A stretch of DNA of 64,000 nt from Vulcanimicrobiota bacterium (GTDB lineage: Bacteria > Vulcanimicrobiota > Vulcanimicrobiia > Vulcanimicrobiales > Vulcanimicrobiaceae), in assembly GCA_963717425.1 (NCBI GenBank), contig OY970335.1, positions 1,777,226-1,841,225 on the forward strand, written 5' to 3'. Positions 28,023 to 64,000 of the stretch are shown piece after piece (within the stretch, counting starts at the first letter, position 1; every line of letters starts with the position of its first letter). The notes below the pieces were generated by a model. It was not told where the DNA came from. It ran no database searches and saw only the letters and a list, made by a program, of their open reading frames with translations. Made by a program: the position numbers and the translations under genes.

Positions 28023-28116
28023 GGGAGTGTACGGGTCTGGTGGCCCGCACGGTCTTCAAAATCGCTGAGGTCGTCGCAAGGCGACTGGTAGGTTCGATTC
28101 CTACACGCTCCCGCCA
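28023..28116 (+). tRNA. selC: tRNA-Sec (anticodon TCA) with encoded CCA.
   Basis: Folded by hand. 8-bp acceptor stem (GGGAGTGT/ACGCTCCC with one G-U). 6-bp D stem (CGGGTC/GGCCCG) with the 4-nt loop TGGT. Anticodon loop CTTCAAA. Long variable arm (GTCGTC-GCAA-GGCGAC). 5-bp T stem (GTAGG/CCTAC) with a TTCGATT loop. This is the bacterial 8/5 tRNA-Sec architecture. The anticodon stem pairs imperfectly in my fold. Confidence 0.85.
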
Positions 28117-28192
28117 AGCTTTATTTTCCAATGGTTTTTGCTCGAGCGAGAGAGCAATTTAGCGACGGTAAACCGGGTCTGGCTCCCCTAAC

Positions 28193-28214
28193 GTGTCTCC
28201 TAAGTGTCTCCTAG
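28193..28214 (+). repeat. Tandem 11-bp direct repeat GTGTCTCCTAA/GTGTCTCCTAG between selC and the integrase gene.
   Basis: Read directly from the sequence. The position inside the presumed attL arm suggests arm-type recombinase binding sites. Confidence 0.6.
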
Positions 28215-28226
28215 ACCCAATGCTCG

Positions 28227-29447
28227 CTACGCCTTCGCGGCGTCCGAGACCACCGAGTCGATCGCATCGGCGGCAGCAGTCTGGCCGTCGACGAACAGGT
28301 GACCGTAAGTGTCGGCCGTGATCGCGATGCCGCTATGCCCCAAGCGATCGCTCACGCGCTTTATGTCGACGCCCTGCGCTATCAAAATGGAGGCGGACGA
28401 GTGGCGCAGGTCGTGCAGTCGGAAAGGACCGATGCCCGCTTGTTTGACGACAGTCCCGAAGCGCCATCCGAACGTCGCAGGCGGCCAGACGGCACCGTCT
28501 TCGTGCCCGAACATCAAATCGAGGTTTTCGTAGCCGAGGCCAAGCTGTCGTCGGCGGAAGATTTGCGCATGCTGCGTCTTCCGGTGCTCTTGCAGAACGG
28601 AAAGGGTGAAAGCACCAAGCTTGATCGTGCGGGGGCGGTTGTTCTTTGGGGATTTGAAAGCTAGCTGGCCGCGCGTCTGCTCGACCGAGCGCGCGACGGT
28701 GAGGGTAGCGGTCTTCTCATCGAAGTCTCGCCACATGAGGCCAAGCAACTCGCCCCGTCTGGTGCCGGTCGTGAGAGCGACGATGATGGGCGCGAACATC
28801 AGGGTTCCTTTTGCTGCGGTGAGGAGTTTCGATGCCTCTTCGACGTTCAAGGCGCGCGTTTGAGGACGTGCCATGCGTGGGGCCTTCACGTAGTCGGCAA
28901 CGTTGCGCGAGAGAAGCCCCCACTCCATGGCGCGCTGCAGGCCGTTGTGCAGCACGCGCAAGACGTGCAATACAGTTCTCGCGGCGAGGGGCGTGCCTTT
29001 CCGCCCATCCTTCCGGGCGCTGCCGGCGCGCAGCCACTCCCGCTTGGCGGCATCGATGTGGGCTGCCGTCAGCTTTCGGAGACGAACAGCGCCGAGGGCC
29101 GGAACAAGTTGATGCTCGACGATTCCCTGGTAACGAATGTACGTGCGCAGAGCGAGATCCGCTTGAACCGAGGGTAGCCAACGTTCGAGCAGGTAGTCAC
29201 GCAGCGTTTCGTTTGAAAGACTCAGGAAGCCATCGGCGGCACGTATCCGAAGACGTGCGAGTTCTTGCTGAGCCTCGTCCTTGGTTCCCCTATACCGAAT
29301 TTTTTTCCGTGCGCGCTTCCCCTCGGCACCGGTGGTGCTGAGCTGCAGCACCCAAAGCCCGCGGCCGTCTGCGTCGAGTGGTCCGCAAGCATAGATGCTT
29401 CCTTCGCCGCGGGGTCGGCGGCGCGCCCGATTCTTAGGTCTACTCAT
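28227..29447 (-). CDS. int: Tyrosine-type site-specific integrase (phage integrase family).
   Basis: 406 aa. The C-terminal catalytic region has RLHDLRHSSASILIAQGVDIKRVSDRLGHSGIAITADTYGHL (R...HxxR...Y). It has an N-terminal SAM-like/arm-binding region and lies adjacent to a tRNA. Confidence 0.95.
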   Translation of the reverse strand: MSRPKNRARRRPRGEGSIYACGPLDADGRGLWVLQLSTTGAEGKRARKKIRYRGTKDEAQQELARLRIRAADGFLSLSNETLRDYLLERWLPSVQADLALRTYIRYQGIVEHQLVPALGAVRLRKLTAAHIDAAKREWLRAGSARKDGRKGTPLAARTVLHVLRVLHNGLQRAMEWGLLSRNVADYVKAPRMARPQTRALNVEEASKLLTAAKGTLMFAPIIVALTTGTRRGELLGLMWRDFDEKTATLTVARSVEQTRGQLAFKSPKNNRPRTIKLGAFTLSVLQEHRKTQHAQIFRRRQLGLGYENLDLMFGHEDGAVWPPATFGWRFGTVVKQAGIGPFRLHDLRHSSASILIAQGVDIKRVSDRLGHSGIAITADTYGHLFVDGQTAAADAIDSVVSDAAKA

Positions 29448-30352
29448 GGTGCTCCTTTCGATCGTAGAATCGAATATCGAATGATGTCCCTGAAAATGGG
29501 ATACACGAAATCAAATTGGTAATGGCGCCCGTCGACTTCGTTAGCCCAGCTGTCCATCAGAAGCCCGGCGACCTCCCAGCGAAGGAGCACTGGAACACCC
29601 CTCGCACCAGCCGCTTCGGCGTTTTGGACCGCTAAGGATAATGTCGCGCCGTAATTTTTTAAGGCGTCGGTCTCGTAATGCAGCAAGTCTGAGTGCCGCG
29701 CATTCCAAGCCTCTTCAATCTCGGCCGAGGCAAGTCGTCGCCGCATAGCTGTGACCAGATCGCGCGCCCCGTCGATGGCTTCGATGTAGCCGACGCCATT
29801 CTCGAAAATGTACGTCGGCGGCGTCTTAATGGGTAAGCGAGGTCCGAGGAAGACTTCGCCGTTTTTTAGCCGCCGGTGCTCAAAGAAACTGGACCATCCT
29901 TGGGCGTCTGCGACGTCTGCTTCCGCGAGTAGTGGCAAGCTAGGGATAATCTCGGCCGCAAAACGAGCGCCCTTAGTGGTTGTGCCAAGGGCTCGTATCG
30001 TTCGCAAGAAGTCACCGTAGTGACCGGCCGCTAGGACAGCAAAGAGACCGGACGCGTAGGGATGCGCCGTTTTTGTGGCGAGCGCCGCCCCAACCAGATA
30101 CGCGCTATCTGCGGTAGCTGGCGTCTTTCCTCGCAACCATTTTTTCACGAGAGAGCGAGGGCTGTTACTGTCCTCGACGTCTTCGCCTTGAGCAATGGCG
30201 CGAGCGTCGTTGTATCTCGCCGCAAGCCCGTCCGGGCCAACCCTTGCACTTTCGAGCGCGACGCCAAGCCACGGACCCCAGCGCCCAAGAACGAACTCCT
30301 TGATCTCGGCTTTCAGCTTCGACAGGGCAAGAGCTCCTTTGGATTTATTCAA
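29444..30352 (-). CDS. Hypothetical protein, translationally coupled to the integrase.
   Basis: 302-aa ORF whose TGA overlaps the integrase ATG (ATGA at 29444-29447). No family recognised. Confidence 0.6.
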   Translation of the reverse strand: MNKSKGALALSKLKAEIKEFVLGRWGPWLGVALESARVGPDGLAARYNDARAIAQGEDVEDSNSPRSLVKKWLRGKTPATADSAYLVGAALATKTAHPYASGLFAVLAAGHYGDFLRTIRALGTTTKGARFAAEIIPSLPLLAEADVADAQGWSSFFEHRRLKNGEVFLGPRLPIKTPPTYIFENGVGYIEAIDGARDLVTAMRRRLASAEIEEAWNARHSDLLHYETDALKNYGATLSLAVQNAEAAGARGVPVLLRWEVAGLLMDSWANEVDGRHYQFDFVYPIFRDIIRYSILRSKGAP

Positions 30353-30437
30353 TCTAGCATAGTACCCTAGTACCGTCTACTCCCATTTGGTATCATACGG
30401 GCTGATCCTGGACTTTATTTTAAGAAAGGCTGCGAAT

Positions 30438-30686
30438 ATGGCAAACTCGAGCCAGGGTGCACAGGCAGCTGAGCGCACGAACTCGCGCGTCACCAACCTC
30501 GCTTCTGATAAGCTGGCCTACACCATCGCGGAGGCTGCGGCTGCGTTGTCCATGGGAGAGACGAACCTGAGGCGCCTCGTCAAGGAGGGAGATATTGCGG
30601 CCGTTCATGTTGGGGTCCGGAAAAAGAAAATCCTCATACCCGCGGCCGCGCTTGAAGCGTGGCTTCATCGCGAGTCCGCTGCCTAG
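30438..30686 (+). CDS. Excisionase/AlpA-like helix-turn-helix DNA-binding protein.
   Basis: ATG 30438 is preceded by AAGAAAGG. YTIAEAAAALSMGETNLRRLVKEGDIAAVHVG...ILIPAAALEAWL matches the MerR-superfamily excisionase HTH pattern. Confidence 0.75.
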   Translation: MANSSQGAQAAERTNSRVTNLASDKLAYTIAEAAAALSMGETNLRRLVKEGDIAAVHVGVRKKKILIPAAALEAWLHRESAA

Positions 30687-30740
30687 TTAGCCTTAAGCGA
30701 AAGCGGCGCCCGACAGCGCCGCTTATTTGGGGGATTTACC

Positions 30741-31184
30741 TTGTCTCAATATACTGCGGCAGCGCAAGCGCGGCCTTCAATTGTTCACATCGACAACGCC
30801 CGGCAAAGGAAGCGGCGTCTTCGTTCCCTTCCGAGACCGCGCTCGGTCGCAGCACATCTGAGCCGCGAAAACCGATACACCCTCTTCGATCTCGGCTGGT
30901 TGCACAACTTGACTAAGCTAAACGAGCTTCGGGTTTATCTCGTGCTGGCGGCGCACGCGGATCATAACCGCGGGACCTGTTTCCCGAGCGAAGAGACAAT
31001 AGGCAGGGAGGCTAGAATCAAGGACCGCCGCGCCGTCAGGCGAGCTCTTCAAGGGCTCGAGGAAAAGGGAGCAATCCGGCGCGAGTTTCGCAAGATGGCG
31101 ACGACACTCTATGAAGTCCACCCGCCGCAATGCGTTGAGGCTGTTCGCCGGTTGTACCAAAAGCGGACCGGAACTACCCCCTAG
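30741..31184 (+). CDS. Winged-helix DNA-binding protein (HTH_36-like, as in phage/plasmid replication-initiator N-domains).
   Basis: LRVYLVLAAHADHNRGTCFPSEETIGREARIKDRRAVRRALQGLEEKGAI is the typical pattern of this wHTH family. An iteron-like array follows. Confidence 0.6.
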   Translation: MSQYTAAAQARPSIVHIDNARQRKRRLRSLPRPRSVAAHLSRENRYTLFDLGWLHNLTKLNELRVYLVLAAHADHNRGTCFPSEETIGREARIKDRRAVRRALQGLEEKGAIRREFRKMATTLYEVHPPQCVEAVRRLYQKRTGTTP

Positions 31185-31349
31185 GTCCGGGTAGAAAGTA
31201 CCCTCCAGAAGCGACCACGTTAAGCGACGCAACGAATTAAGGCTATGAAGGAGGGAATGCATTATGGAATTACCGATCTTACTTCAAAGAATTCTCCGCC
31301 GGCGCGATGCTCGTCGCGTTGACTCACGCGGACTTTGAGGCCGGACGCG

Positions 31350-31520
31350 GAGCAGACGGCTCTGGACGGGAGCCGAAGGTTTGACAGCTGAGCAGACGGT
31401 TCGAGAGCTGAGCTGACTGCTCAGCGGCTGAGCAGATGGTTCGGCGCGAAGCACACGGCTCGATCGCGGAGCAGCCGGTTCGACGAGCAGCAGCCGGTTC
31501 GACGCGCGAGATGGCTCGGC
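31350..31520. repeat. Iteron-like array: about 8 degenerate copies of GAGCAGNCGGYTCGR.
   Basis: Copies start near 31350, 31390, 31410, 31430, 31450, 31469, 31488 and 31508. After the 40-bp gap between the first two copies, the remaining seven are spaced 19-20 bp apart. Examples: GAGCAGACGGTTCGA, GAGCAGATGGTTCGG, GAGCAGCCGGTTCGA. Confidence 0.7.
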
Positions 31521-33535: not shown

Positions 33536-33799
33536 TTGCCAGGCGTGGGCACAGGGTCGCGGTCGCTGGACAATCCGGGCGTGGCGTCCTATGATCGCGC
33601 ACGACGGGCACTGGCGCGGCGCATACGCGAGCGTCGGGCTGAGCTGGGTATTACGCAAGAGGACTTGGCCGAGCGAGGCGAGTTTGACGTCCGCCATGTG
33701 CAGAAGCTTGAGGCCGGCGAGTTGAACGCATCGCTGAAAACCTTGTGTAGGCTGGCGTCTGCTTTGAAGTTAAGCCTCAGCGAGTTAGTCGAATGGTGA
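33536..33799 (+). CDS. XRE-family helix-turn-helix transcriptional regulator.
   Basis: LARRIRERRAELGITQEDLAERGEFDVRHVQKLEAGELNASLKTLCRLASALKLSLSELV is a canonical HTH_3 pattern. Confidence 0.8.
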   Translation: MPGVGTGSRSLDNPGVASYDRARRALARRIRERRAELGITQEDLAERGEFDVRHVQKLEAGELNASLKTLCRLASALKLSLSELVEW

Positions 33800-34286
33800 T
33801 TTCAATATCCATAAACACGCGCACTTCCGAGCGCCCTAAGAAACAGTCGCTGACCGTCCAAAACGGTCCATCGGAATCTTTTTGTGGAATCGCGACGTCG
33901 ACAACGCGACGAAAGAGCGCACGACAAAAAGCGTGCGCTTCGCTTCGCTCCCAATCCGGCGTCTCGCAGGCCTGGTACTCATAGCCGCGGATCGCCATAA
34001 GCGCTTGGCTCGGCGTGTACTCGCGCTCCGTCGGCCGATACAGGTAGGTGAGCGCCGCCGGATCTCGCACCTCGCGGTAGCGGTAAGCCACCGATTGCGC
34101 GTTTTCGGATAGGAGCATGCGTCCGATTTGGGTCTCCGTCTGATCGCGCAGCGAGCGACTTTGGCCAGGGTTCCCGAAGTACCAGGAGAGCTGGCCGTGG
34201 CCGATCCCGCCATACTCGCTCTCGTACTGCTTGGCGATGTCGATCAGCGCGTCGATGTGGGCGTCGTCGATGACATATGCGCTCAC
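33777..34286 (-). CDS. Hypothetical protein, last gene of the recombinase operon.
   Basis: The GTG at 34286 overlaps the upstream TGA (GTGA). Upstream of that point the long ORF is Arg/Ala-rich and probably not coding. No family recognised. Confidence 0.5.
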   Translation of the reverse strand: MSAYVIDDAHIDALIDIAKQYESEYGGIGHGQLSWYFGNPGQSRSLRDQTETQIGRMLLSENAQSVAYRYREVRDPAALTYLYRPTEREYTPSQALMAIRGYEYQACETPDWERSEAHAFCRALFRRVVDVAIPQKDSDGPFWTVSDCFLGRSEVRVFMDIEITIRLTR

Positions 34287-34732
34287 GACTGCAGCGCTCC
34301 GAGATGGAGCGCGTGCAGGGTCGCATCGACTGTCTCCCACGGAAGGTGAAAGCCGGCCGCCTTCAGCGCTCGCTGTGCCGCGGTCACATCGGCCTTGGTG
34401 AAGCCATAGGGCCAGCGGCTCGGGTCCGAGTTGCGCATCGGCCAATTCGGGTGAGCCGTGCCCTCGTACTCATTGATGAAGACCATCGACCGATAGCCCG
34501 AGGGTTTAGTAGCGCGGATAATCTCCTTGGCACGCTTGGGGATGTTCGGGAATCCGAAGCGCGCGCAGCGGTCGCACTCCAGACCCTCTTGCTCGACCAC
34601 GACCGCGCGCTCTTTCTCGATCCTTGTGCGACAGCGGAGAACGCACCATTCACAGTACAGGCGTCCGCGAACGTGATAGAGCGTCACGGGGAGCCGATAG
34701 GTGGGTTTTCGGGCCCGCATCTCAGAGTCCAA
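34283..34732 (-). CDS. Hypothetical Cys-rich protein.
   Basis: ORF coupled to both neighbours. Contains CEWCVLRC...CDRC, a possible zinc finger. No family recognised. The start is 34732 or 34720. Confidence 0.5.
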   Translation of the reverse strand: MDSEMRARKPTYRLPVTLYHVRGRLYCEWCVLRCRTRIEKERAVVVEQEGLECDRCARFGFPNIPKRAKEIIRATKPSGYRSMVFINEYEGTAHPNWPMRNSDPSRWPYGFTKADVTAAQRALKAAGFHLPWETVDATLHALHLGALQS

Positions 34733-35696
34733 CGCGCTGTGCGGCGTTCATCTGCCAAATCGTTGCTGGTCGGGTGTAGCGCTGAACCATCGAAAGGCTC
34801 TTGTGCCCAGTTTGACGCGAGATCTCAAGTGCATCCACGCCCGCCAAGGCGGCCGATGTCGCGAAGCCTGCGCGCAACGAATGACCTGCGAACCGAGCAG
34901 GGTCGAGCCCAATGCGTTGCGCATGGCGCTTGACGATCAGGGCGACAGCTGCGCCTGTTAGGCGCGTCGGCGCAACGTTGCCGCTACGATCGACCGAACG
35001 AAACAGCGGACCGTCGACAATGCCCGAGAGGTCGAGCCAGGCTTTCATCGCGCCAGCGGGGCAGGTCACCGGATTCGACCCGTTAGGAACCCCGATCAGA
35101 CGGCCTTCGCCTTCCTGATCCGTCTTCGACCGACGTAAAGTGACCTCGAGACCGTCAGCTACGAACCGGACGTCGCCGCGGTCGAGGGAAACCAGCTCGG
35201 ATCGGCGGAACGCGCCGGCGAATCCGAGCAACAAGAGCGCACGATCGCGGAGGTCGATCATCGCTTCGGTCAACGGTTGCAGCATCCGTCGAAGGTCGGC
35301 AGTTAGAATCGCATCTTTTCGGTCTTGCGTCACGCCCAGCGCGCGGCGAATGCCTGCCCAGACCTCGACCACTCGCGGGTGGGTAAATGGGCTTGGAAGG
35401 CCGCCTTTTCGGTGTTCTTGTCCGATCGCTGCGATGCGCCGGGCGATTGTAGCGAGCTTGTACTCTCGTGCGAGCTCGGTTAGGTACAACACCACCGCCT
35501 GTGGCTGAGCCGGCAGCGGCGAAACGCCGTGGGCACGACACCAGGCTTGAAACTGCCGAAGGTCGGTACGATACGCGCGTCGAGTACTCTCGGCGTTGGA
35601 GGACTCGGCGAACGCCTCAGCCTCGTCTCGAAGACTCTCGAGATGCGCGAGCCCGGCCGACGGAGCCGGAAGTATGGGGACCAACGCGGTGCTCAT
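34722..35696 (-). CDS. Tyrosine recombinase, XerC/XerD-like.
   Basis: 324 aa with an N-terminal SAM-like domain (TRRAYRTDLRQFQAWC). The catalytic region has LLLLGFAGAFRRSEL, GHSLRAGFATSAA and GHKSLSMVQRYTR. Confidence 0.9.
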   Translation of the reverse strand: MSTALVPILPAPSAGLAHLESLRDEAEAFAESSNAESTRRAYRTDLRQFQAWCRAHGVSPLPAQPQAVVLYLTELAREYKLATIARRIAAIGQEHRKGGLPSPFTHPRVVEVWAGIRRALGVTQDRKDAILTADLRRMLQPLTEAMIDLRDRALLLLGFAGAFRRSELVSLDRGDVRFVADGLEVTLRRSKTDQEGEGRLIGVPNGSNPVTCPAGAMKAWLDLSGIVDGPLFRSVDRSGNVAPTRLTGAAVALIVKRHAQRIGLDPARFAGHSLRAGFATSAALAGVDALEISRQTGHKSLSMVQRYTRPATIWQMNAAQRVGL

Positions 35697-36157
35697 GGGT
35701 CGTCTCTCGGCAGACGCTCAAGACCCAAGTGAAGCTGCTCGGCGAGATAGCGACGGACCGCATCCAGATCGTCAATCGACGGAATCAACTTCGAAGTTTT
35801 TCGTGCGGCCGTACTCACCGGCGCGTTTAGCTCGGGGACATCAATGCCCAGCGTGGCCGCAAGCCAACCCGCGACAATTAATCGATGACATGGAATGCCC
35901 GGCTTCTCGTGGCAGAGCAGGAGCGCATCAGGGCCGGCGAGCGCAACGAGATCCCTATACACACGCTGAGGATCGAGCGCTTCAAGCCGCGCCCAGTACA
36001 GCGCGTCAAACTCGGTAGCATCCATCTTTAGCATGACTGGGGTCGGTGCTAATGCAGCGTAAGAGCGACCGGAAAACCTCATCCAACGCGGCCCAAAACG
36101 CGCGATCGAAATAGCGTTTGGATGCGTTCCGGCAGTATGAAAGCAGGCCGTTTTCAA
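35693..36157 (-). CDS. DUF488-like protein (phage/plasmid subclade).
   Basis: The pattern ISIARFGPRW...EFDALYWARLEALDPQRVYRDL...LLLCHEKPGIPCHRLIVAGWL resembles DUF488 proteins. Its stop overlaps the recombinase start (ATGA). Confidence 0.45.
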   Translation of the reverse strand: MKTACFHTAGTHPNAISIARFGPRWMRFSGRSYAALAPTPVMLKMDATEFDALYWARLEALDPQRVYRDLVALAGPDALLLCHEKPGIPCHRLIVAGWLAATLGIDVPELNAPVSTAARKTSKLIPSIDDLDAVRRYLAEQLHLGLERLPRDDP

Positions 36158-36189
36158 AGCCTCTCCTGAATATCAATTGGGGTAATCGC

Positions 36190-36198
36190 AGTATAGCA
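36190..36198 (-). promoter_or_regulatory. Extended -10 promoter element TGCTATACT upstream of the DUF488-recombinase operon.
   Basis: The reverse complement of AGTATAGCA at 36190-36198 lies 33 nt upstream of the 36157 start. The same 9-mer recurs at 36624 and 37718. Confidence 0.45.
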
Positions 36199-36868: not shown

Positions 36869-37387
36869 TCAAGCCGCGTTCTCAAAGTGCTGCTCCAAAA
36901 GCTCGAACATGGTTGGATGCAAGGCGCGAAGGCGTTCGCGGCTTACCCGAGGCCATGCCGAGGCTTCGGAGTTTGCTCCGCACCAAGCGCGAAAACACTC
37001 AGCGAAGAATTCGTCCACTCCGGTCGCCGCGTAAGGCGTCACGAAACTGCGTGCCTCCGCGAAGGCCTTGCGAATGGTAGGATCGATTCCGGAAAAGTAG
37101 ATGCCGCTGCCAAACGCGCAATCTATCGCGTGCCCGTACTCGTGTACAACGGTCATCGGATCGAGGCACCGAAGGTAGACCGTACGCTCTTCCACGACGA
37201 ATAGCCCGGCCGGTGGCGCCGGCCAAGCGTCAACGTCGATTTGCAGACGCGAAAGAGTGGATGAGCGATCCTTGTATAGCTCGCCCGGTCCGAGCGCTGC
37301 GATCGAGCAGTCCGCTCGCGCGAAGAGCGCTTGCGCATGGGGAGGAACGTGTTCCTTCAGGATGCGGGAAATCTTGGTATCCATCAC
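36869..37387 (-). CDS. Zinc metallopeptidase domain protein (ArdC C-terminal/MtfA-ATLF-like).
   Basis: HEYGHAID (HExxH) plus a downstream EFFAECF motif. The start overlaps the stop of the ArdC-N-like gene. Confidence 0.7.
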   Translation of the reverse strand: MMDTKISRILKEHVPPHAQALFARADCSIAALGPGELYKDRSSTLSRLQIDVDAWPAPPAGLFVVEERTVYLRCLDPMTVVHEYGHAIDCAFGSGIYFSGIDPTIRKAFAEARSFVTPYAATGVDEFFAECFRAWCGANSEASAWPRVSRERLRALHPTMFELLEQHFENAA

Positions 37388-37671
37388 GCCACGCCTTCCC
37401 TCGGAAGCGCGTCGGTCTGCGCGATTGCGAAGACGGTATAGCCGCGCGGACCCTTGAGCCTGTGCCCCTTGCAGTCAATCTTGTCGCTTTCGACGATTTT
37501 TACGATGCGGCAGCCGTGCTCGCCCTTGCGAACGCACCGGCCAATTGAAAGCGCTTGCCTGAAGGTGACGAATTCCGGGGCGTAACCATTGGCGGCCGCG
37601 TACGCCGAGAGGGCGAGATGGTTCTTGCCTGCGTACGGTTCGCGCGTAATGTGATTGATAGCGTCTTGCAT
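37384..37671 (-). CDS. ArdC N-terminal-like ssDNA-binding domain protein (DUF1738-like).
   Basis: YAGKNHLALSAYAAANGYAPEFVTFRQALSIGRCVRKGEHGCRIV matches the N-domain pattern of ArdC antirestriction proteins. Confidence 0.65.
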   Translation of the reverse strand: MQDAINHITREPYAGKNHLALSAYAAANGYAPEFVTFRQALSIGRCVRKGEHGCRIVKIVESDKIDCKGHRLKGPRGYTVFAIAQTDALPREGVA

Positions 37672-49045: not shown

Positions 49046-49431
49046 GGCGTTCCTCGTCCGAACGCATGCGTCGAGTTGGCCGACGCGATACTGACTGCGA
49101 GTTGCGCCTTCGGTCTCGTTTGCATGCGATTGGATTTCGGTATCGAGTTGACTATTGCGTCGAAGGTTTGCGCACGAAACCTGATATCGCATTCGTCCGG
49201 GCAAGGGTCGCTATCTTCATCGACGGTTGCTACTGGCACGGATGTCCGGAGCATGGGACAATCTCTAAGACAAACGTCGGATTTTGGCGAGCGAAGATCG
49301 AGGGCAATCGAGAGCGGGATCGGCGCTTGACGAAGGACCTGACTCGGGCAGGCTGGCGAGTCGTGCGGTTGTGGTCACACGAATCTCTTGGCACCATGCT
49401 GGAACGAATTCGCGACGCATTGACGCGTTAG
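49042..49431 (+). CDS. vsr: Very-short-patch repair endonuclease.
   Basis: RMRRVGRRDTDCELRLRSRLHAIGFRYRV...KPDIAF...VAIFIDGCYWHGCPEHG...FWRAKIEGNRERDRR...GWRVVRLWSHE is collinear with E. coli Vsr as I remember it. Confidence 0.9.
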   Translation: MRRSSSERMRRVGRRDTDCELRLRSRLHAIGFRYRVDYCVEGLRTKPDIAFVRARVAIFIDGCYWHGCPEHGTISKTNVGFWRAKIEGNRERDRRLTKDLTRAGWRVVRLWSHESLGTMLERIRDALTR

Positions 49432-50636: not shown

Positions 50637-50680
50637 ATTAGAAGCGTTTTCCCTCGAGATTAGAAGCGTTTTCCCTCGAG
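50637..50680. repeat. Perfect 22-bp tandem duplication ATTAGAAGCGTTTTCCCTCGAG x2 in the dcm/UDG-like divergent intergenic region.
   Basis: Read directly: 50637-50658 and 50659-50680 are identical. The repeat lies about 60 nt upstream of the dcm start. Confidence 0.9.
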
Positions 50681-51706: not shown

Positions 51707-51720
51707 GAACACCCAGGGAG

Positions 51721-52609: not shown

Positions 52610-53857
52610 TTGCCGTTCCTGGACAACCCGAGCCGCCACGGTCTTGATCGAAATGCAGTCACACTACCTGTGATACCCCAAGGCCAGGACCCACGCGGAA
52701 ACGCTCACACTCCAGCATCGTCCGAGCCCGCGTACCTCTTAGAAACTCTTCGTATCATTGAAGCAGCCACCAATCACGATGCGGAGAAGCTGTCGATCTT
52801 CGTCGCGGCCCTCGTAAATAAGCTCCGCGAAAACGGCTTCGCTCACGCTGGGAAGCTTATCGAAAGAGCGTTTAACCGGTCGCGCGAGAGGCAGCTCTCC
52901 CCACAGTCATTGGGGCGCACAGTCGAAGGAGGGCTGCGGATTCCAGTTGACCCGGAGACTCACGTACCGCTAGCGGACGTCGAAACGCTTTCGGTAGACG
53001 ACTTGGGCTACGAAGCCGATCCGTTGACGTCGGCTAATACGTCTTCGTTCCTGTCCTTCGCGCGTAATCGGGGCAAGCTTCTCGCGAGTGGAATCTTCGT
53101 GCCGACGAATCTTCTGCTGCACGGGCCGCCTGGCTCCGGCAAAACGATTACTGCGAGATACGTCGCCGCCGCTCTCGGCCTGCCTATTATAACCGCCAGG
53201 ATGGATGCCGTTGTCTCCAGCTACTTGGGAAACACTGCAAAGAACATCCGCTACATTTTTGATGCAGCATCGTCGCAAAATGTCGTGCTGTTCCTGGATG
53301 AGCTTGATGCGATCGCGAAGGCCCGAGATGATGAGCACGAGCTTGGCGAACTAAAGCGCGTGGTAATAGCGCTGCTCCAAAACATCGACTCCGTGAACGG
53401 GAAGCTGATCCTGATTGCGGCGACTAATCACGAGCATCTTCTTGATCCGGCGATTTGGCGGAGGTTCCCGCACCGCGTCGGATTTCAGTCTTCCACGCTT
53501 GACTTTAGAAGGGCGCTGTTCGCGAGGTTTTCGACCGGGTTGCCGCCGGTCTGGTATGATGCCCTCGCACATGCCTCGCGTGGCCTAAGCGCCGGGGATA
53601 TACGCGAGATAACACAACGCGAGCAGATCAGCGCCATCATTGAAGATCGACTTATCCTTCCGGCCGCATTGCTGCGGAGCACGCTTGGCGTCGCTTCAAA
53701 GGGACCGGGCGGTTCGTACATGCCGATCGCGGATGTCGCCCGACGCGCAGCTTCCCGTGATAGTAAGTATTTTACTATTACTAGGCTGGCGAATCTACTT
53801 GGGGTTAGCCGCAGCAGGATCACAAGTTACCTTCGTAGGGCACGGCGTGCCAGATAA
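52610..53857 (+). CDS. AAA+ ATPase (classic AAA clade), IetA-like.
   Basis: LLLHGPPGSGKTITARYVA (Walker A), VVLFLDELDAI (Walker B), LIAATNHEHLLDPAIWRRF (sensor/Arg finger region). An S8 protease gene lies immediately downstream. The TTG start is uncertain. Confidence 0.85.
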   Translation: MPFLDNPSRHGLDRNAVTLPVIPQGQDPRGNAHTPASSEPAYLLETLRIIEAATNHDAEKLSIFVAALVNKLRENGFAHAGKLIERAFNRSRERQLSPQSLGRTVEGGLRIPVDPETHVPLADVETLSVDDLGYEADPLTSANTSSFLSFARNRGKLLASGIFVPTNLLLHGPPGSGKTITARYVAAALGLPIITARMDAVVSSYLGNTAKNIRYIFDAASSQNVVLFLDELDAIAKARDDEHELGELKRVVIALLQNIDSVNGKLILIAATNHEHLLDPAIWRRFPHRVGFQSSTLDFRRALFARFSTGLPPVWYDALAHASRGLSAGDIREITQREQISAIIEDRLILPAALLRSTLGVASKGPGGSYMPIADVARRAASRDSKYFTITRLANLLGVSRSRITSYLRRARRAR

Positions 53858-56381: not shown

Positions 56382-57308
56382 GTGACCGTATCGAGGCGCG
56401 TAAAGGAAGCAGATGCTGAGGCTTTCGCGGAGGTTTTGTCTAAGACAGCGTTGCCAGGAGGTACGGCAAGATTTGGCCATTTCGCGCTGCGAGGAAAGAG
56501 TGGCGTTAGAGACCGGATCAACTGGTCGAACCGTACGAACGGCAACGACCTCATCCTCGGCAAGCAGGAGTACACGTTCCCTTGCGGCGCGGCAGACGTT
56601 CAACTCTCGCTGCAACTCTATTTCAACGTGCGCCGCCACTATCGCCTTTTCGCATATACGAGGGCTGGCGATGTAGAAGGCATGACGTTCTCGGTCAACC
56701 TTACGACGAAAAGAGAATCGCGAAGCGTCATATTCCTGGAGCAGCCGATCAGTTTCAAGGAACGCTATCCGGATGCCCGAGATGGTGGCATCGAGCGCCG
56801 CCGGCAAAAGCAGATTCTGCTCTGCGATGTGCTTAGGCGCATCGGCATGGACGTCGACGATGATGCGAGGCTGGTTCTCGGCGTCTTCGATCCGCAGGGC
56901 CGAATGCTGCTCGACGCCACACCCGAGAGCTTTCTGAATAACTTCGTCGCGGCAGCGCTGTTGAAGGGCCACTTTCAGGGCAATAAGGGATATGAGTTGG
57001 ACGTCATTCCTTCTATGCGGGCCGCATACGATCTCTTCGCGCCAGCGAAAATGAATCCAAAATGGAAATCGCTGAGGGGGCGTCGCCCTGCTGGGCGCCC
57101 TCCAATTCCGTTAGCGGTACGTTACAAGGTCCTCGCGAGGGATCGGAGCGTATGCCGAAGGTGCGGACGGGGAGTGGCGGGAGGTCTCACTCTGCACATT
57201 GACCACAAGACCCCGGTTTCGCTCGGCGGCGACAGTGGCCTGAAGAACCTCTGGACGCTTTGCAGCGAGTGCAACCTCGGCAAGGGCAACCGCATCATCG
57301 ACCGCTAA
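56382..57308 (+). CDS. HNH endonuclease with an N-terminal domain of about 230 aa of unknown function.
   Basis: GTG 56382 is preceded by AGGAGG at 6-nt spacing. The C-terminus is CRRCGR...LHIDHKTPVSLGGDSGLKNLWTLCSECNLGKGNR (HNH with a CxxC...CxxC zinc site). Confidence 0.85.
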   Translation: MTVSRRVKEADAEAFAEVLSKTALPGGTARFGHFALRGKSGVRDRINWSNRTNGNDLILGKQEYTFPCGAADVQLSLQLYFNVRRHYRLFAYTRAGDVEGMTFSVNLTTKRESRSVIFLEQPISFKERYPDARDGGIERRRQKQILLCDVLRRIGMDVDDDARLVLGVFDPQGRMLLDATPESFLNNFVAAALLKGHFQGNKGYELDVIPSMRAAYDLFAPAKMNPKWKSLRGRRPAGRPPIPLAVRYKVLARDRSVCRRCGRGVAGGLTLHIDHKTPVSLGGDSGLKNLWTLCSECNLGKGNRIIDR

Positions 57309-58261
57309 ATTCGCGTTATCGCCTTGAGGGCCGCGCATCGACAAAGTGCGTCCTCGATGAAATCCTCCGGCGGCTGCTCAGACTCGCTCGACTCGTTAAG
57401 CTCCAAGCCGCCGCGCAATTCATCCTCGGCCACCCCGCCGGAGGCGGGAGCGTCACGCGCCTCGCACCGGCAACGTCTTAATGCGGCGTAGCAAAATTTC
57501 CACGCAACCGACGACAGTGATGCGTCGGGTCGCGTTCGGCTACCGATTCGGCGATGCGCACGCTTCCGGCGCTCAACGCTGCGCTTCGCGCCACCGTTCG
57601 GCGGCAGGGCTGATCACGATTTTCCACGCGGCGCGCGTCGCGAGAGCGGCTAAGGAGCGCAGGCCTCGGATACTGACCAGCCCAGCTTTTGGTATCGAGA
57701 AGTACCATTATCGTTAGCTAAGGGGCGAACCGTGGCTCATCAGGGCGTCCATCGCCGAAACGGCTCCCGCTATCGCAATGGCTATGGGCTCATTGCGGAC
57801 TCATCCGAGCCGAAGGGTCTCTAGCGCGTTTGGCGACGCAGTCGGTTGTAGGGTATAGCGGCAGCCAACGTTTCAATCGAGGCCCTATCAGAGAGGCAAA
57901 CGAGGGTGACGACATGGCTGCGCGGGTTTCTCTGCAAGTTAGGCGCTTATTACACCCCGTGCGCGATGCCATGCCGCCGGCGATAGTTTAGCCGATTCCC
58001 GAATCCAATCTAGCCCGTTATAGTGCTTCAACAAGGTTGTGAATTGTGGCCTTGGGTTCGATCGTCCGAGTCAAAACGCGACCCACACTAGAGCCGGCTC
58101 GGGCACCGACGGTTAGGAAACGTGCAGCGCCTTTCTTATCAAACATTTTATTCGTTTATACAGGCATTCAGCTCCAGAGGGGGCTCAATTCAAACGCTTG
58201 CTCCAGATATTTGCGCCGACGCTAATGAGGAAGAACCAAGGTGAGTCACGTCAGCACTGGC

Positions 58262-58546
58262 TCACGCATCGATCTCTGCGGCTATCCCTTCAGCGACACG
58301 CCGAAGAGCATTTCCCCATTGCCCCCTCGGCAATCCGCTGACTTCAAAATAGTGTCTGGCGATGTCAGCGAAAAAGATGCCAAGCGCCGCTGGATCGGGC
58401 CACGGGTTCTCAGTTGTGGCAAAGCCAATGTCCTCATTTGGGAGCATCCAAGCGCACAGTATCTCCACAGCAGCCGGATTCTTAATAACATCATCAGGGA
58501 TCGTAAGCCTACGCATGTACTTTTTTATACCTCTAGGGCGGGACAC
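58262..58546 (-). CDS. Small hypothetical protein, possible (orphan) immunity protein, DUF5076-like.
   Basis: 94 aa. LTIPDDVIKNPAAVEILCAWM...WPDPAALGIFFADIARH resembles DUF5076-type sequences from memory. It lies downstream of the RHS toxin/LRR pair in the low-G+C segment. Confidence 0.35.
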   Translation of the reverse strand: MSRPRGIKKYMRRLTIPDDVIKNPAAVEILCAWMLPNEDIGFATTENPWPDPAALGIFFADIARHYFEVSGLPRGQWGNALRRVAEGIAAEIDA

Positions 58547-59544: not shown

Positions 59545-62500
59545 CTACGGAGGGCTTTGCTGCGTACTTTGCTGGGGCCGTGCTCCTTGAGCGTTGATCT
59601 TATTGGCTACGTTGGGATTACCCACGCCGCCCGCCTCATCTATTGCATTTTGCTCCGCGGTTTTTAGATTGCCAGAAACCGCCCGGGTCTGGACTGATCC
59701 AAAGTTCTCGCTTGTCAACTTTCCGCTCCTGATATGCTGGGCCATTCTTTGTCCGATGTTTATCGATCTACCGACATACGTCTTTCCTTGCGTGATGAAT
59801 CTGTATATTCCCCGAGCGACGCCACCCGCTAGCGCTCTGCCAGCAGCGGCGGCGGACGCCGCGGAGCGAGCGGTTGCGGCGGCAAAGCCTCTCGCGCTGC
59901 TCGCGAGCGCAGCGTCACCCACTGCTTCGGCGGCCTCACCAACAGCCAGAGCACCGCCTTCGACTACGACGGCGCCTACTGCCGCCTCTCCAACGCACGC
60001 GTCTTCGATACAATAACCGCTCGGATCGTTGTACTCGACTGGATTATTATCGTTCCACATGAAGGACTTTTGAGACATCGGGTCATGCACATCACCGGCA
60101 TATGCGTCAGGGGTCGTCCAAGATCCCGACGTGTTGTCATACGAGCGCGCGCCTTGGATTGTGTCGAAGCCGTCAGTCAATCCATCGGTCCGTGGCATGC
60201 CGAGTACGCCACTAGATCCCATTGCCCACCCTAAATCTGAACCATTGGTACCATCGTACGCTGAGCCAAACCATCTGATCGACTTTGGTTCATTCGGCGT
60301 CGTGAGAGGAAAGCACGGCGAGTGCCAAATGCTCACCTCATTCCGGAAGAAGGTTTGATTCCAACTGTCGCCGAGACCGGCAAAGGTACTTGCGTTAGCG
60401 TTATGGCAGCCGATGACCACGCCGCCGGGGCCACGATCGTAGAAAGTTAAGCCGGCATATCCCGTATCTTGCGGCAGGATGTCACCTTGGGCTCCGATCT
60501 TGATGTCGTCGAGTGCTGCAGTCGAGCCGTCGCTGGCAAATAGCAACTGATTTCCGTCCCAGTGAAGGACCTCGTTGTGCAGTTTTCCAGAGCTGTCAAA
60601 AGTGCCGATCATAATCGGATGGCCGTTGGGACCCCAGCTTATTCCCTGCTCGACCGGGGGGCTCACATTTACTCCCGAAAACTCCGTGTTTAGTAGATGA
60701 TTTTCGGCGTCGTACGTTCGGCCCACTGTTGTGGCCGCAAACGTTCCGGTGCTAAACTGCTTCCACGGCGCGGATTGACCATTCATTTGGCCTGCATTAC
60801 TGTAATTCCAGGTCGTAGGGATAGAGTTGCTGCCAAAAGGGACCTGTTGGGTCTGCACGCCCATAAAGGCGTCCCAGTAGTACGAAGTTGCGCTGCTAGG
60901 CTGTAGTCGAATCATCACGCCGTTAGCTAAGAATCCACCTCCGCCAAGATAGTTCTGAGAACTTGGCGATGACACCAGCTCCCCACGCAAGCTGTAGCCC
61001 CACGTGGGTGGCCCCTGAGAGGAGCCTTGAATGGTGGTGCTGAGTAACTCGCCCTCCGCGCTGTATGAGAAGTTTAACAGGCTGGTGGCCGGAGAACTAT
61101 ATGAACTCTCTTGTCCATAGCCGTCGTAGGTTATGGTTGTCGGAGTCGCGTTTTTAGCGATGCCAGTCTCAGCGCGGTTGTTCATTCGTCCCGTATTGTC
61201 GTATGTGTAGACGATATTTGTTATTCCCGCATTCTTGATTTGGCTGCCAAGGGTTCCATCATTGATGGTTTCCGTTCCGATAAGCCCATCCTGACGGTAA
61301 GAATAGCTGAAGAGCGCAGCTTGCGTTACGGCCGCCGAAGAGACGTCGACGCTTTCCAGCGTGCCGTCGGGATAATAGTTATGCGTAACGACGGCGGATG
61401 ACATCCTGTCGCTATTTGTATCACCGCTGGGATCAGTCGAGGTCCGGAGCCGCCCATCGAGGTTGTACGTGTATAGCTGGGGGTTGCTGTAAGCTCCCGA
61501 CGTAATTTGTGCCGGCTGACCGTCTGGGTCATACAGATAGTCTCGTTCTGGAGAAGATCCGCCGCTGGACTCGAAGGTCTTCTCTTTCCCATCCTCGCGA
61601 TAATCGAACTTCTGGCATTGGCCTAAAGCGTTACAATCGGTACCAAGCAGTCCTGCAACATTACCGCTTCCGAGCGGAGTGATATCCCAAGTCAGTGCCT
61701 CTGTACTCAGTGTCTCCGTATTCGATTGGTTAACTAAGGAATATTTCGCAACGGCCCGATCGACATCATCGTATGCGGTTGCCTTGATGTTTTGATAGCT
61801 AGTATTAGGTACCGTTTGCGGGTTAGCATTGTACTGTATAGAGGGATTCGCTGATCCCAAAAGCTCTTGCGTCGCGTAGAGGTTACCGTAGGCTTGAAAC
61901 TGCGCGCCGTGAAAAGATTTTTGGCTGCCGTCCAAATCGTACAGGTAGCGGGTTACCCATGGATTCTGATATGCATCGCTGTCGGCTTGCGGGAGTTTGA
62001 CCTCGACGAGCCGATCGAGCCCGTCGTAGTACTTGCACGTCGTTCCGGCGCCAATCGAGGCGCTCGGCGTGCACCATGACGGCGTAGACTTTCCCGCCTT
62101 GCAGCCTCCGGGCACGCAGTTGTGGTGGCGCGCCTCGGTCGCGACATCACCGTCGGGATCGTAGCCGTACGCGACAGCGTACTGCGGTGGTGTTGCGCCC
62201 GACTTCAACTGGCTATCGGTCGGACACGATGGTCCCCCGTCGAGGTGATACTGCCAGCCGGTCTCACTGTAGAAAACGCTCCCATCGAGATTGTAGCAAA
62301 TATTAGATGATATATGCAGATCGGGATCGGTGCGCCTGGTTACACGGTTCATTCCATCGGTAGTGTACTGCAACACCCATTGGGTATTGCTCGTGGGGTA
62401 GCTGCTGTATGTAGACAAGTTGCCGGCGGTCGTATAGGCAAACTTTTGGTGCGGGATTCGATTGTTGTCCTGACCGATCGCAGTGCCTGTGACATCGGTG

Positions 62501-64000
62501 GGAAGACCCATTCCACAGTTCGATCCGGGATAGTTGATGGTTCGAGCGTAGCCGCCGAATGTGTCCATTTCGATTAGGCAGCCGTATGGTTCCGCAGCGT
62601 CGTTTGGATTAAAGATAAACTTGGCGTGGTTTGTGCCGTACGTTTGGCACAAATTGTCCGCCGGTACCTGCCAGCCGTTGTTGTTACCGTTGTTGGCCGG
62701 ATCGCAGTAAAACTTCACATTGTTGTAGCTGTCGTAATCATAGAAGCTCGTCGGGTTAATCGACCCCTGAGGGAATATGGTCATCTTAGGAAGGACGACC
62801 TCCACGGTGTTGCCGTTGACGTCGTAGCCCATCTTCGTCACATAGCCGCGCGCGTCGGTTGTACTTGTAAGGTCGTTGTTCGCGTCCCAGGCCTGGGATG
62901 TTCCGAGCCATGTGCTTCCCCCACCCGTAGTGAGAACGTACGTCTGAATCGCACGATTGCTTCCGTCGTAACACCACTGGGTATTATGCTGGAAGGCATC
63001 CACCATTTCGGCCATTGATCCAGTGCAATTGCTCCATGGGATTTGATTGTTGAAAAAGTCTGTATCGTCCCATTGTACGAAGCCGGTATTCTCGCCGCTC
63101 TGTATAGCCGAGGGCGATAAGACATTGTCCTGAGGAGTGGGGTTAAGCACGCCGCGCGTATACCAGTCGGAAAGCTGATGACTGGAATAGTCGAAGTCGA
63201 CGCAAGCTCCATCCGTGGGGTGTCCGCTCGTGTCGATGTTAGAAATTGTGGCGCGCGGACCGCACACCTCCATGAGTCCTGGCGGTCCAATATCGTAGGT
63301 CTCAGGTAGGTTGCCTCTGGCGATAGGCGCTCCGTCGAGAAAACTTGTCGGCATGGTTTCGTTCGCGAGCACCGGGGTGTTCCCCGGCTTATCGACATCG
63401 TCAACCTCACCATTACTGGAATAATGATAGTTGACCGTTTCGTTATCTGGCAACGTGATCGACATCAGCTCGGTAATAGGGGGACTAGAACCTGCAATCT
63501 GTCCGAATGTCATCGTTAGCTGAGCGCCGTCAGGCTGGTGTGTCGCGACGATCGTTGCAAGATTTTCCGGGTTACTAGCGTCTGGGCTCCAACTATATGC
63601 TAGGTTAATATAAAAGTTCGTATTGCGCCCATAAATTGCCAGAAGCCGCCCGTAGTATCCCGCTTGATTGCTCGTGCAGTTAGAGTAGGGCGCGTCAAAC
63701 ATGTAGCTCGTTCCGGATTTCTTGGTCCATTGCAACTGGCAGGCAATGCCGTTGCCGCCGAGCTGGGTCGTCGCAAGAATTTCATACACACCGGGGGTCA
63801 GCGACGTGCACGTAGCCACGGTGTTGATCGTGCAACTATAGTCGTCACGGGCGCCATCACCGGTATAAACGCTTACGGTCCCCGTGTTCTGGCCGGTTGA
63901 CGACCAACCAAGGTGAACATCCAAGTTGTTCGTCCAGCGGTTGCCAAATACGGATGGCGTCGACCCGTCAGTATTAATCGCGTCGTGCCCTGACTGGGAA
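59545..64000 (-). CDS. RHS/YD-repeat polymorphic toxin with a C-terminal GIY-YIG nuclease domain. The N-terminus lies outside the window.
   Basis: Many YD repeats (YDVNGN, YGYDPDGD, YLYDLDG, YTYNLDGR, YLYDPDG, YTYDNTGR). The core ends at NDPSGYC and is followed by an Ala/Gly-rich linker. The last 88 aa (nt 59548-59811) are GIYRFITQGKTYVGRSINIGQRMAQH...AEQNAIDE (GIY...YVG...R..H...E). I translated the frame upstream of the listed TTG (63924) and it stays open to nt 64000. Confidence 0.9.
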   Translation of the reverse strand, partial: SQSGHDAINTDGSTPSVFGNRWTNNLDVHLGWSSTGQNTGTVSVYTGDGARDDYSCTINTVATCTSLTPGVYEILATTQLGGNGIACQLQWTKKSGTSYMFDAPYSNCTSNQAGYYGRLLAIYGRNTNFYINLAYSWSPDASNPENLATIVATHQPDGAQLTMTFGQIAGSSPPITELMSITLPDNETVNYHYSSNGEVDDVDKPGNTPVLANETMPTSFLDGAPIARGNLPETYDIGPPGLMEVCGPRATISNIDTSGHPTDGACVDFDYSSHQLSDWYTRGVLNPTPQDNVLSPSAIQSGENTGFVQWDDTDFFNNQIPWSNCTGSMAEMVDAFQHNTQWCYDGSNRAIQTYVLTTGGGSTWLGTSQAWDANNDLTSTTDARGYVTKMGYDVNGNTVEVVLPKMTIFPQGSINPTSFYDYDSYNNVKFYCDPANNGNNNGWQVPADNLCQTYGTNHAKFIFNPNDAAEPYGCLIEMDTFGGYARTINYPGSNCGMGLPTDVTGTAIGQDNNRIPHQKFAYTTAGNLSTYSSYPTSNTQWVLQYTTDGMNRVTRRTDPDLHISSNICYNLDGSVFYSETGWQYHLDGGPSCPTDSQLKSGATPPQYAVAYGYDPDGDVATEARHHNCVPGGCKAGKSTPSWCTPSASIGAGTTCKYYDGLDRLVEVKLPQADSDAYQNPWVTRYLYDLDGSQKSFHGAQFQAYGNLYATQELLGSANPSIQYNANPQTVPNTSYQNIKATAYDDVDRAVAKYSLVNQSNTETLSTEALTWDITPLGSGNVAGLLGTDCNALGQCQKFDYREDGKEKTFESSGGSSPERDYLYDPDGQPAQITSGAYSNPQLYTYNLDGRLRTSTDPSGDTNSDRMSSAVVTHNYYPDGTLESVDVSSAAVTQAALFSYSYRQDGLIGTETINDGTLGSQIKNAGITNIVYTYDNTGRMNNRAETGIAKNATPTTITYDGYGQESSYSSPATSLLNFSYSAEGELLSTTIQGSSQGPPTWGYSLRGELVSSPSSQNYLGGGGFLANGVMIRLQPSSATSYYWDAFMGVQTQQVPFGSNSIPTTWNYSNAGQMNGQSAPWKQFSTGTFAATTVGRTYDAENHLLNTEFSGVNVSPPVEQGISWGPNGHPIMIGTFDSSGKLHNEVLHWDGNQLLFASDGSTAALDDIKIGAQGDILPQDTGYAGLTFYDRGPGGVVIGCHNANASTFAGLGDSWNQTFFRNEVSIWHSPCFPLTTPNEPKSIRWFGSAYDGTNGSDLGWAMGSSGVLGMPRTDGLTDGFDTIQGARSYDNTSGSWTTPDAYAGDVHDPMSQKSFMWNDNNPVEYNDPSGYCIEDACVGEAAVGAVVVEGGALAVGEAAEAVGDAALASSARGFAAATARSAASAAAAGRALAGGVARGIYRFITQGKTYVGRSINIGQRMAQHIRSGKLTSENFGSVQTRAVSGNLKTAEQNAIDEAGGVGNPNVANKINAQGARPQQSTQQSPP

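Follow-up and report, generated by a model that had tools for sequence, protein, structure and literature searches.

The stretch analyzed here comprises 64,000 nucleotides (nt) from a Vulcanimicrobiota bacterium (assembly GCA_963717425.1, contig OY970335.1, positions 1,777,226 to 1,841,225) and is called the window below. Its left flank carries ordinary chromosomal genes, encoding a BNR/sortilin protein, ClpB, an S9 peptidase, BipA, and a glyoxalase-family protein. These lead up to a tRNA-Sec gene (selC), which is followed by a tyrosine integrase gene (int1), a long interval with a second recombinase and several defense genes, and, at the far right, an RHS toxin gene. An initial annotation had described everything from the tRNA-Sec gene to position 64000 as a single defense and toxin island integrated at this tRNA. 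Our analysis argues for a shorter element: we consider it likely that the DNA from 28,117 to about 58.2 kb (at most 60.0 kb) is a horizontally acquired genomic island, anchored at the tRNA-Sec gene and carrying defense cargo. The window is also present, at 99.995-100% identity, in NCBI contig JBAUXZ010000027.1 (GCA_049584535.1), from a metagenome-assembled genome (MAG) of an uncultured soil bacterium annotated as Candidatus Cybelea sp. (Eremiobacterota).

The tRNA-Sec gene, its integrase, and the left junction

The features at the left end are the following (positions are those of the window; aa, amino acids).

28023-28116, plus strand: tRNA-Sec gene with anticodon TCA, left junction (attL); ARAGORN, Rfam RF01852, and end of the homology to L145 and L150 at 28116
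28054-28116, plus strand: 63-nt attachment core, beginning with the first base of the anticodon loop and ending with CCA; an identical 63-mer flanks the L152 element
28227-29447, minus strand: tyrosine integrase int1, 406 aa; Pfam PF00589 (Phage_integrase) and PF14659 (Phage_int_SAM_3)
29444-30352, minus strand: 302-aa gene with no family match in Pfam, PHROGs, NCBIfam, or PADLOC; 67% aa identity in L012
30438-30686, plus strand: excisionase-like HTH_17 protein, 82 aa; Pfam PF12728, E 7.5e-11
30741-31184, plus strand: HTH_36 winged-helix protein, 147 aa; Pfam PF13730 and PHROG replication-initiation families

ARAGORN calls a single tRNA in the window, this tRNA-SeC, and the gene scores 70.5 bits against the Rfam tRNA-Sec model (RF01852), whose gathering score is 47. 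Inspection of the sequence gives an acceptor stem of 8 bp, in which GGGAGTGT pairs with ACGCTCCC, and a T stem of 5 bp. The 8/5-type tRNA-Sec ending at 28116, which had at first been folded by hand, is thus confirmed by both programs and by its stems. Composition changes on its right side. The left flank has a G+C content of 0.633 (in 2-kb windows the minimum is 0.608 and the standard deviation 0.014) and the interval 28117-58261 one of 0.581, in agreement with the A+T-richer DNA initially noted there. The tetranucleotide correlation with the left flank goes from about 0.96-0.97 within that flank to 0.78-0.93 in the island, and G+C along the interval forms a mosaic (0.59, 0.61, 0.56, 0.555, 0.61, and 0.57).

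The comparison with related genomes places the junction precisely. The closest relative found is a sister strain represented by JGI contig Ga0599166_0000187 (L150), whose BipA and glyoxalase-family proteins are 99.5% and 98.6% identical to those of the window, and whose DNA is 97.7% identical over 22232-28116. Per bin of 100 nt, the two agree at 97-100% of positions as far as 28099 and at 51-77% from the end of the tRNA through the integrase, and there is no alignable homology beyond about 29.4 kb. Another relative, MFD00125.bin.1.38 (L145), shows 88.7-92.9% nt identity over 17700-28116 and its homology stops exactly at 28116; to the right of its tRNA lie an integrase 35% identical to that of the window and then unrelated genes. 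The reverse arrangement is found in MFD00731.bin.1.64 (L012), where an unrelated upstream flank precedes a stretch 83.8% identical in nt to window positions 28023-31445, which holds the integrase, the 302-aa gene, and both HTH genes; the cargo of the window is not common to L012. In a further locus (L032) no integrase follows the tRNA-Sec gene. The same flank with different content (L150, L145) and a different flank with the same integrase module are what site-specific insertion at the tRNA would be expected to leave. The left junction of the acquired DNA is base-exact at the CCA end of the tRNA, position 28116, and both the proposed insertion at tRNA-Sec and the expected insertion polymorphism between relatives are borne out.

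The tRNA-Sec gene of L150 differs from that of the window at 28073 and 28077 only, where the variable-arm stem reads GTCGTCGCAAGGCGAC in the window and GTCGCCGCGAGGCGAC in L150. Both substitutions lie inside the 63-nt core, and the 5' halves of the two genes are identical.

The integrase gene, as initially described, follows the tRNA closely: 110 nt separate its stop codon from the end of the tRNA, and it is transcribed towards the tRNA. Its product matches the integrase family phrog_1 (216 bits). The 302-aa gene overlaps the start of int1 and is probably co-transcribed with it. The HTH_17 gene, which corresponds to the excisionase of the initial annotation, is called alike in L003 and L127 and is also found after the integrase in L145, L150, L151, and L152. 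The HTH_36 protein resembles the DNA-binding part of replication initiators and aligns to residues 280-395 of the 455-aa prim-pol/HTH_36 protein of L151.

In protein searches int1 belongs to a tight family (56-90% identity) that has no curated NCBIfam equivalog. Homologues 73-88% identical lie about 110 nt from tRNA-Sec in L012, L150, L151, and L152; together with the window, these are the members with readable context, and all five adjoin a tRNA-SeC gene and are transcribed towards it. L152 is a complete element of 4,262 bp between exact 63-nt direct repeats, whose identity extends for 0 nt on either side. It consists of the tRNA-Sec gene, an integrase 78% identical to int1, a 216-aa gene, an HTH_17 gene, a 347-aa gene, and the tRNA 3' copy, and variable genes (Fic, IS110, and a STAND NTPase) are located beyond its attR, the right-hand copy of the repeat. 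The int1 family is specific for tRNA-Sec and uses the 63-nt tRNA-Sec core as its attachment repeat. The limits of the core reappear in the Logan contigs of SRR28060712, among which the one covering the left flank stops at 28083 and the one covering the island begins at 28087. Assuming k=31, these ends imply a second context for exactly 28054-28116 somewhere in that sample, which is a hint and not proof of an attR since other Eremiobacterota share the 63-mer.

Backbone, predicted defense cargo, and their variation between strains

Several genes without an assigned family lie between the HTH_36 gene and the int2 block, which opens the second part of the island.

33777-36157, minus strand: four-gene block with the tyrosine recombinase int2 (34722-35696) and three genes without an assigned family; Pfam PF00589 and PF02899
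36869-37671, minus strand: ArdC-like antirestriction gene in two open reading frames (ORFs); Pfam PF08401 and a motif read from the translation
38113-46510, minus strand: Druantia-like system made of the three genes that follow; PADLOC
38113-43677, minus strand: putative DruE helicase, 1854 aa; PADLOC DruE4 1388 bits, DruE2 1349 bits
43677-44759, minus strand: DruL4-like gene; PADLOC DruL4 35 bits, weak and partial
44633-46510, minus strand: DruF-like gene; PADLOC DruF 48 bits, weak and partial
46970-49045, plus strand: putative HATPase-type restriction enzyme; PADLOC REase_II 300 bits, Pfam
49042-49431, plus strand: putative Vsr nicking endonuclease; PADLOC Vsr 60 bits, Pfam
49428-50576, minus strand: putative C5 cytosine methyltransferase; PADLOC MTase_II 358 bits, Pfam
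50969-52473, plus strand: UDG-superfamily protein (245 aa) and 250-aa protein; Pfam PF03167, weak, for UDG
52670-53857, plus strand: putative IetA AAA ATPase; PADLOC 335 bits, Pfam AAA
53847-56108, plus strand: putative IetS S8 protease; PADLOC 768 bits, Pfam Peptidase_S8
56382-57308, plus strand: HNH endonuclease; Pfam PF01844 and a weak PADLOC REase_II match

Window positions 33839-36198 are 83% identical in nt to L150, and int2 itself is 89.5% identical in aa. The int2 block is conserved island backbone shared with the sister strain, and int2 therefore gives no sign of a separate insertion. The second recombinase of the initial annotation is thus present at 34722-35696, and the conservation of its block in the L150 island takes away the argument for a composite insertion that had been built on it. 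The antirestriction gene is present as well, as an ArdC-N fragment of 95 aa (37384-37671) that lacks approximately the first 36 profile positions. An abutting ORF of 171 aa carries the HEYGH zinc-metalloprotease motif. The split of the ArdC-like gene is either natural, giving a form with two genes, or a result of decay.

The restriction and defense genes that had been noted in the interval fall into three putative systems. Druantia systems of type II and IV combine DruE with accessory genes (DruF and either DruG or DruL, with DruM in type II), and the first cluster is Druantia-like, with a strong profile match for DruE and weak ones for its partner genes. The span of the DruL4-like gene is that of the ORF list, and other gene callers give proteins of 318 or 331 aa. 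The C5 methyltransferase was considered as a DruM and rejected in favor of a role in type II restriction-modification, on its score (358 bits with type II methyltransferase models vs 108 bits with DruM) and on gene arrangement, as opposite-strand genes separate it from the Druantia genes. The restriction enzyme, Vsr, and methyltransferase genes are contiguous (46970-50576) and are predicted to form a type II restriction-modification system with Vsr. The IetA and IetS matches are nearly full length, and the two genes are adjacent and on the same strand, as would be expected of an IetAS system. Profile matches for restriction-modification/Vsr and IetAS are strong. The UDG-superfamily and 250-aa proteins have no match in PADLOC or NCBIfam, and PADLOC gave nothing useful on the backbone ORFs, the HNH gene, or the LRR gene.

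A perfect tandem duplication of a 22-nt unit (ATTAGAAGCGTTTTCCCTCGAG x2, 50637-50680) lies between the start of the C5 methyltransferase gene and the UDG-like gene. This unit may be an operator controlling the restriction-modification system.

The ORFs were scanned with Pfam, PHROGs, NCBIfam, and PADLOC, and none matched a relaxase, a coupling protein, or type IV secretion. The view that conjugation genes are missing is upheld, and the element is, as far as can be seen, non-conjugative. An integrative and conjugative or integrative and mobilizable element was rejected on the lack of transfer genes, as nothing but the split ArdC-like gene came up. We found no virion, packaging, or capsid-redirection genes; PHROGs gave only the integrase and replication-initiator DNA-binding families, and IMG/VR has no relative of int1. 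A prophage was rejected on the lack of PHROG structural matches and of int1 relatives in IMG/VR.

The content of the interval varies between strains. In L150 the tRNA-Sec gene is at about 5.9 kb of the record and the RHS-secretin locus at about 40-49 kb, so the order tRNA-Sec, variable interval, RHS, secretin is common to L150 and the window, with about 34.5 kb and 31.4 kb between the landmarks, respectively. The backbone of the L150 interval is as in the window, with an integrase 73% identical in aa, and its cargo is a CBASS set according to precomputed Pfam matches (SMODS, bacHORMA_2, Cap8, and an AAA ATPase). In L151 the genes are Qat-like, and a prim-pol/HTH_36 replication protein of full length is present as well.

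The right end and the resident RHS-secretin locus

The window was extended by 3.3 kb, to 67.3 kb, with the NCBI contig (L132), which completes the RHS gene.

57309-58261, non-coding stretch of about 950 nt: probable right limit of the acquired DNA; no convincing ORF and a change of composition
58262-58516, minus strand: DUF5076 protein, candidate immunity gene of the RHS cassette; Pfam, homologue in L137
58652-59536, minus strand: LRR protein, candidate immunity gene of the RHS cassette; Pfam, homologue in L137
59545-64404 (past the window end), minus strand: RHS polymorphic toxin, 1619 aa, with DUF6531, RHS repeats, and a GIY-YIG-like tip; Pfam, L132 extension

The RHS toxin gene is present from 59545 past the window end, as initially noted; its assignment to the island cargo does not stand. 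A secretin gene starts at 65029, divergent from the RHS gene. It is a core gene, 96% identical in aa in two relatives (89-90% nt) and 71-86% in most other loci read. The RHS gene adjoins it in six related loci (L133, L134, L137, L138, L140, and L143). From 60011 on, the RHS core is 82.6% identical in nt to L133, whose homology does not extend into the C-terminal toxin tip. The tip (59545-60010) comes after the DPSGY motif at the end of the core and contains a GIY...YVG motif, with a weak GIY-YIG match in Pfam (E 0.007). Because the RHS core and the secretin are neighbors in six related loci, the RHS gene is not island cargo, and the span 28023-64000 is too long. The RHS-LRR-DUF5076 cassette, with its swappable tip, and the secretin are resident chromosome. 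Homologues of the DUF5076 and LRR genes (57% and 48%) also follow the RHS gene in the more distant relative L137. There, the trio of tip, LRR, and DUF5076 (34-57% aa identity) stands behind an RHS core that is only 33% identical, and the cassette has therefore been shuffled. In these respects the locus resembles other RHS polymorphic toxin cassettes, which have a conserved DUF6531 core, the DPSGY motif, a divergent tip, and downstream candidate immunity genes, with the difference that it is not part of the island next to it.

Since the RHS core and the secretin are conserved neighbors, the island ends before the RHS core. The HNH endonuclease is the last gene without a counterpart in any compared locus, and the composition break initially placed at about 57.3-58.3 kb is real, with the island cargo on one side and the RHS tip with its immunity module on the other. 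The acquired DNA thus ends at about 57.3-60.0 kb, most simply in the non-coding stretch 57309-58261. Within the same stretch, after the HNH gene, Logan contigs of ERR10755948 end at about 57420 and restart at 57686 (approx. 57391-57715), and the contig of SRR28060712 is continuous across this region. Variation between strains, or a short repeat where the island is presumed to end on the right, may account for the gap in ERR10755948.

Proposed origin of the island and its relation to other tRNA-Sec elements

The mechanism that we propose draws on general knowledge of tyrosine integrases that target tRNA genes, on the 63-nt repeat in L152, and on the base-precise left junction. A tRNA-Sec-specific tyrosine integrase would have recombined an incoming element with the tRNA gene inside the 63-nt segment that starts at the anticodon loop and ends with CCA. 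The element would have brought a replacement for the 3' half of the tRNA, which would explain why the tRNA gene is intact at the left junction. Its backbone would comprise int1, the 302-aa gene, the excisionase-like HTH protein, the replication-initiator-like winged-helix protein, and the int2 block, and its cargo the Druantia-like helicase system, the type II restriction-modification/Vsr genes, IetAS, and further genes without an assigned role. The right-hand repeat would have been lost after integration.

Several observations weigh against this interpretation. An adjoining integrase, insertion polymorphism, and atypical composition are all found, as in other tRNA islands, but the hallmark of an intact element, a second attachment site, is absent: between 28.2 and 67.3 kb the 63-nt core does not recur, either whole or as a fragment of more than 12 nt. 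A second copy of CTTCAAAATCGCTGAGGTCGTCGCAAGGCGACTGGTAGGTTCGATTCCTACACGCTCCCGCCA in direct orientation would define attR. Within the window, a 26-mer search allowing 3 mismatches and a blastn-short comparison with the complete tRNA region gave matches at chance level (9-12 nt), and a single 21-nt match of 90% identity (E ~0.1) links 37070-37090 to tRNA positions 28081-28101. An attR beyond the window, as initially suggested, is unlikely, as none occurs within 3.3 kb past its end. With attR absent, the island is probably locked and no longer excisable, and between close strains its content now probably changes by replacement and not by clean excision and integration. A search for nested elements gave no convincing direct or inverted repeats within 27.9-60.1 kb, and the right end has no homology to the L012 island or to the DNA beyond the RHS tip of five relatives. 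Every relative has different DNA beyond the RHS tip, and for this reason the right boundary cannot be placed by homology. In addition, the tRNA-Sec (L145) and RHS-secretin (L133) loci of MFD00125 are on different contigs, and synteny across the interval is therefore not universal. L012 shares only the 3.4-kb integrase module, and the complete family member, L152, measures no more than 4.3 kb; it may be that the cargo never traveled with the int1 integrase. Finally, the defense functions are assigned from profile matches alone, among which those of DruF and DruL are weak.

In MFD00125.bin.1.38 (ENA ERZ25039460), contigs 4713 and 49763 carry L133 and L145. The tRNA-Sec gene is 12.7 kb from the end of a 480-kb contig and the RHS-secretin locus at 1.78 Mb in a 2.72-Mb contig. 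In the window and in the JGI sister contig these loci are neighbors, which suggests that one lineage has been rearranged or that the assembly is broken at a heterogeneous island.

The alternative that best survives, and to which we give serious if tentative consideration, is accretion. Only an element of about 3.4-4.5 kb (int1, the 302-aa gene, HTH_17, and the Rep-like HTH_36 protein) would have integrated, and the defense genes would be older tenants of the variable DNA that separates tRNA-Sec from the RHS locus, left by earlier tandem integrations with decayed repeats or brought by homologous-recombination replacement via the conserved flanks. The size of the L152 element, with variable genes past its attR, the end of the L012 homology at 31445, the mosaic G+C of the interval (0.555-0.61), the split ArdC-like gene, and the short Rep-like gene are all in line with it. 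So is a comparison of the sister contig (L134) with the window extension over 64993-67308, in which the secretin is 90% identical in nt and the RHS protein 56% in aa, as against 97.7% for the left flank. This suggests recombinational allele replacement past the island into the right flank. However, neither an attR nor a remnant of one is found between the integrase module and the cargo in the window, nor within 9.8-11 kb in L150 and L151. Moreover, the sister strain shares the int2 block, which lies 5 kb into the island, so the common backbone exceeds 4 kb. The 30 kb may have come in one piece and lost its right end later, or a small 4-kb element may have settled before an older, variable defense region.

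The version of the initial annotation, a single intact mobilizable island running from tRNA-Sec through the RHS gene to an attR past the window, is very improbable. Low G+C does persist through the RHS gene to about 64.9 kb, and the contig graph of SRR28060712 implies a second context of the 63-nt core in the sample. Yet G+C is back to 0.61-0.63 from about 64.95 kb, at the secretin, there is no attR up to 67.3 kb, and the RHS core and secretin are neighbors in six loci, some of which have no tRNA-Sec gene within 10 kb. The second metagenome context may belong to another Eremiobacterota genome, the 63-mer being shared between species. Finally, a fusion of DNA from two organisms at the tRNA junction, by assembly or binning, would be conceivable in a MAG whose tRNA 3' half is identical in many co-occurring species and where Logan contigs break within the tRNA gene, but it can be dismissed almost entirely: an NCBI contig of 194 kb runs across the junction and has a single mismatch against the window in 20.4 kb, positions 28087-62398 are covered at 100% identity by a Logan contig from SRR28060712, a separate 3.15-Mb contig encodes proteins identical to the LRR, HNH, and IetS products of the right-hand end, and the independent JGI contig, from another sample, repeats the layout flank, tRNA-Sec, integrase, int2, RHS, secretin. 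The structure is concordant across three independent assemblies, which makes a chimeric join at the tRNA unlikely.

The target of the int1 family is widely conserved. The 23-mer at the tRNA 3' end matched more than 120 species representatives from Eremiobacterota, Gemmatimonadota, Armatimonadota, and Negativicutes, and the full 63-nt core is identical among several Eremiobacterota. Most matches of the 23-mer (114 of 121) are complete tRNA-SeC genes. Several others are partial copies starting from the anticodon loop. Some share a contig with a complete gene, at a distance of 6-48 kb (L021; L121 with L049), and for one (L078) the complete gene (L061) lies elsewhere in the MAG, on a different contig. 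A 9.8-kb IMG/VR element (L148) is bounded by a partial tRNA-Sec copy that starts at the anticodon loop. Of the 95 species-representative loci whose downstream sequence is long enough, 12 carry an integrase ORF, each on the minus strand and no more than 800 nt past the tRNA-Sec gene, which substantiates the claim that this tRNA serves as a target in the lineage of the window.

Loci with a complete and a partial tRNA-Sec, the latter starting at the anticodon loop or the T arm (L021, L049/L121, L061/L078, L045/L064, and L148), span other phyla (Negativicutes, Gemmatimonadales) and one IMG/VR contig. They are likely intact tRNA-Sec-integrated elements.

The selC gene is a classic integration hot spot for pathogenicity islands of Enterobacteriaceae, such as LEE and SHI-2. 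Like the island described here, the selC islands LEE, SHI-2, and PAI I-536 have a tyrosine integrase directly 3' of tRNA-Sec, atypical composition, and strain-variable cargo (see also PMC6174562, PMC2704930). The island of the window differs from them in its Eremiobacterota host, an integrase family unrelated by name, a 63-nt core from the anticodon loop, a cargo of anti-phage defense instead of virulence, and an undetected attR. The Pf prophages of Pseudomonas aeruginosa also use tRNA-Sec as attachment site (PMC7549136), and the use of this target outside Enterobacteriaceae is thus already known. They share with the window a tRNA-Sec attB, a dedicated integrase type, and an HTH excisionase, whereas their core is 27 bp long and 3'-terminal and they carry structural genes (PMC7549136); the window has no virion genes and its core starts at the anticodon loop. 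A parallel in content is with the defense islands found on integrative elements and phage satellites at tRNA hotspots, where defense systems are clustered behind an integrase and cargo is swapped, as within the int1 family (putative Druantia-like, restriction-modification, and IetAS systems in the window, CBASS in L150, Qat in L151). Unlike phage satellites, the window has no capsid-redirection or packaging genes and no primase was seen, prim-pol being found only in L151.

A wider reading, doubtful at this stage, is that elements of about 4 kb move between tRNA-Sec genes across wide taxa, homogenize the tRNA 3' half, and seed strain-specific defense islands before the RHS locus. It is based on the identity of the 3' part of tRNA-Sec over at least 23 nt in more than 120 representatives of four phyla. 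If it were true, the two compensatory variable-arm substitutions that distinguish the window from its sister would mark different donor elements.

The tRNA-Sec-anchored island itself is an ordinary tRNA-anchored genomic island, of a well-known kind, and not a new kind of system. Its interest lies in the host phylum, the defined 63-nt core, the swap of defense cargo at the strain level, and the wide conservation of the target, none of which will surprise specialists. It documents an island in Eremiobacterota, a phylum known mainly from MAGs, with a left junction resolved to the base. It corrects the assumption that the neighboring RHS toxin is part of the island, and it is useful for annotating mobile elements and defense hotspots in soil MAGs.

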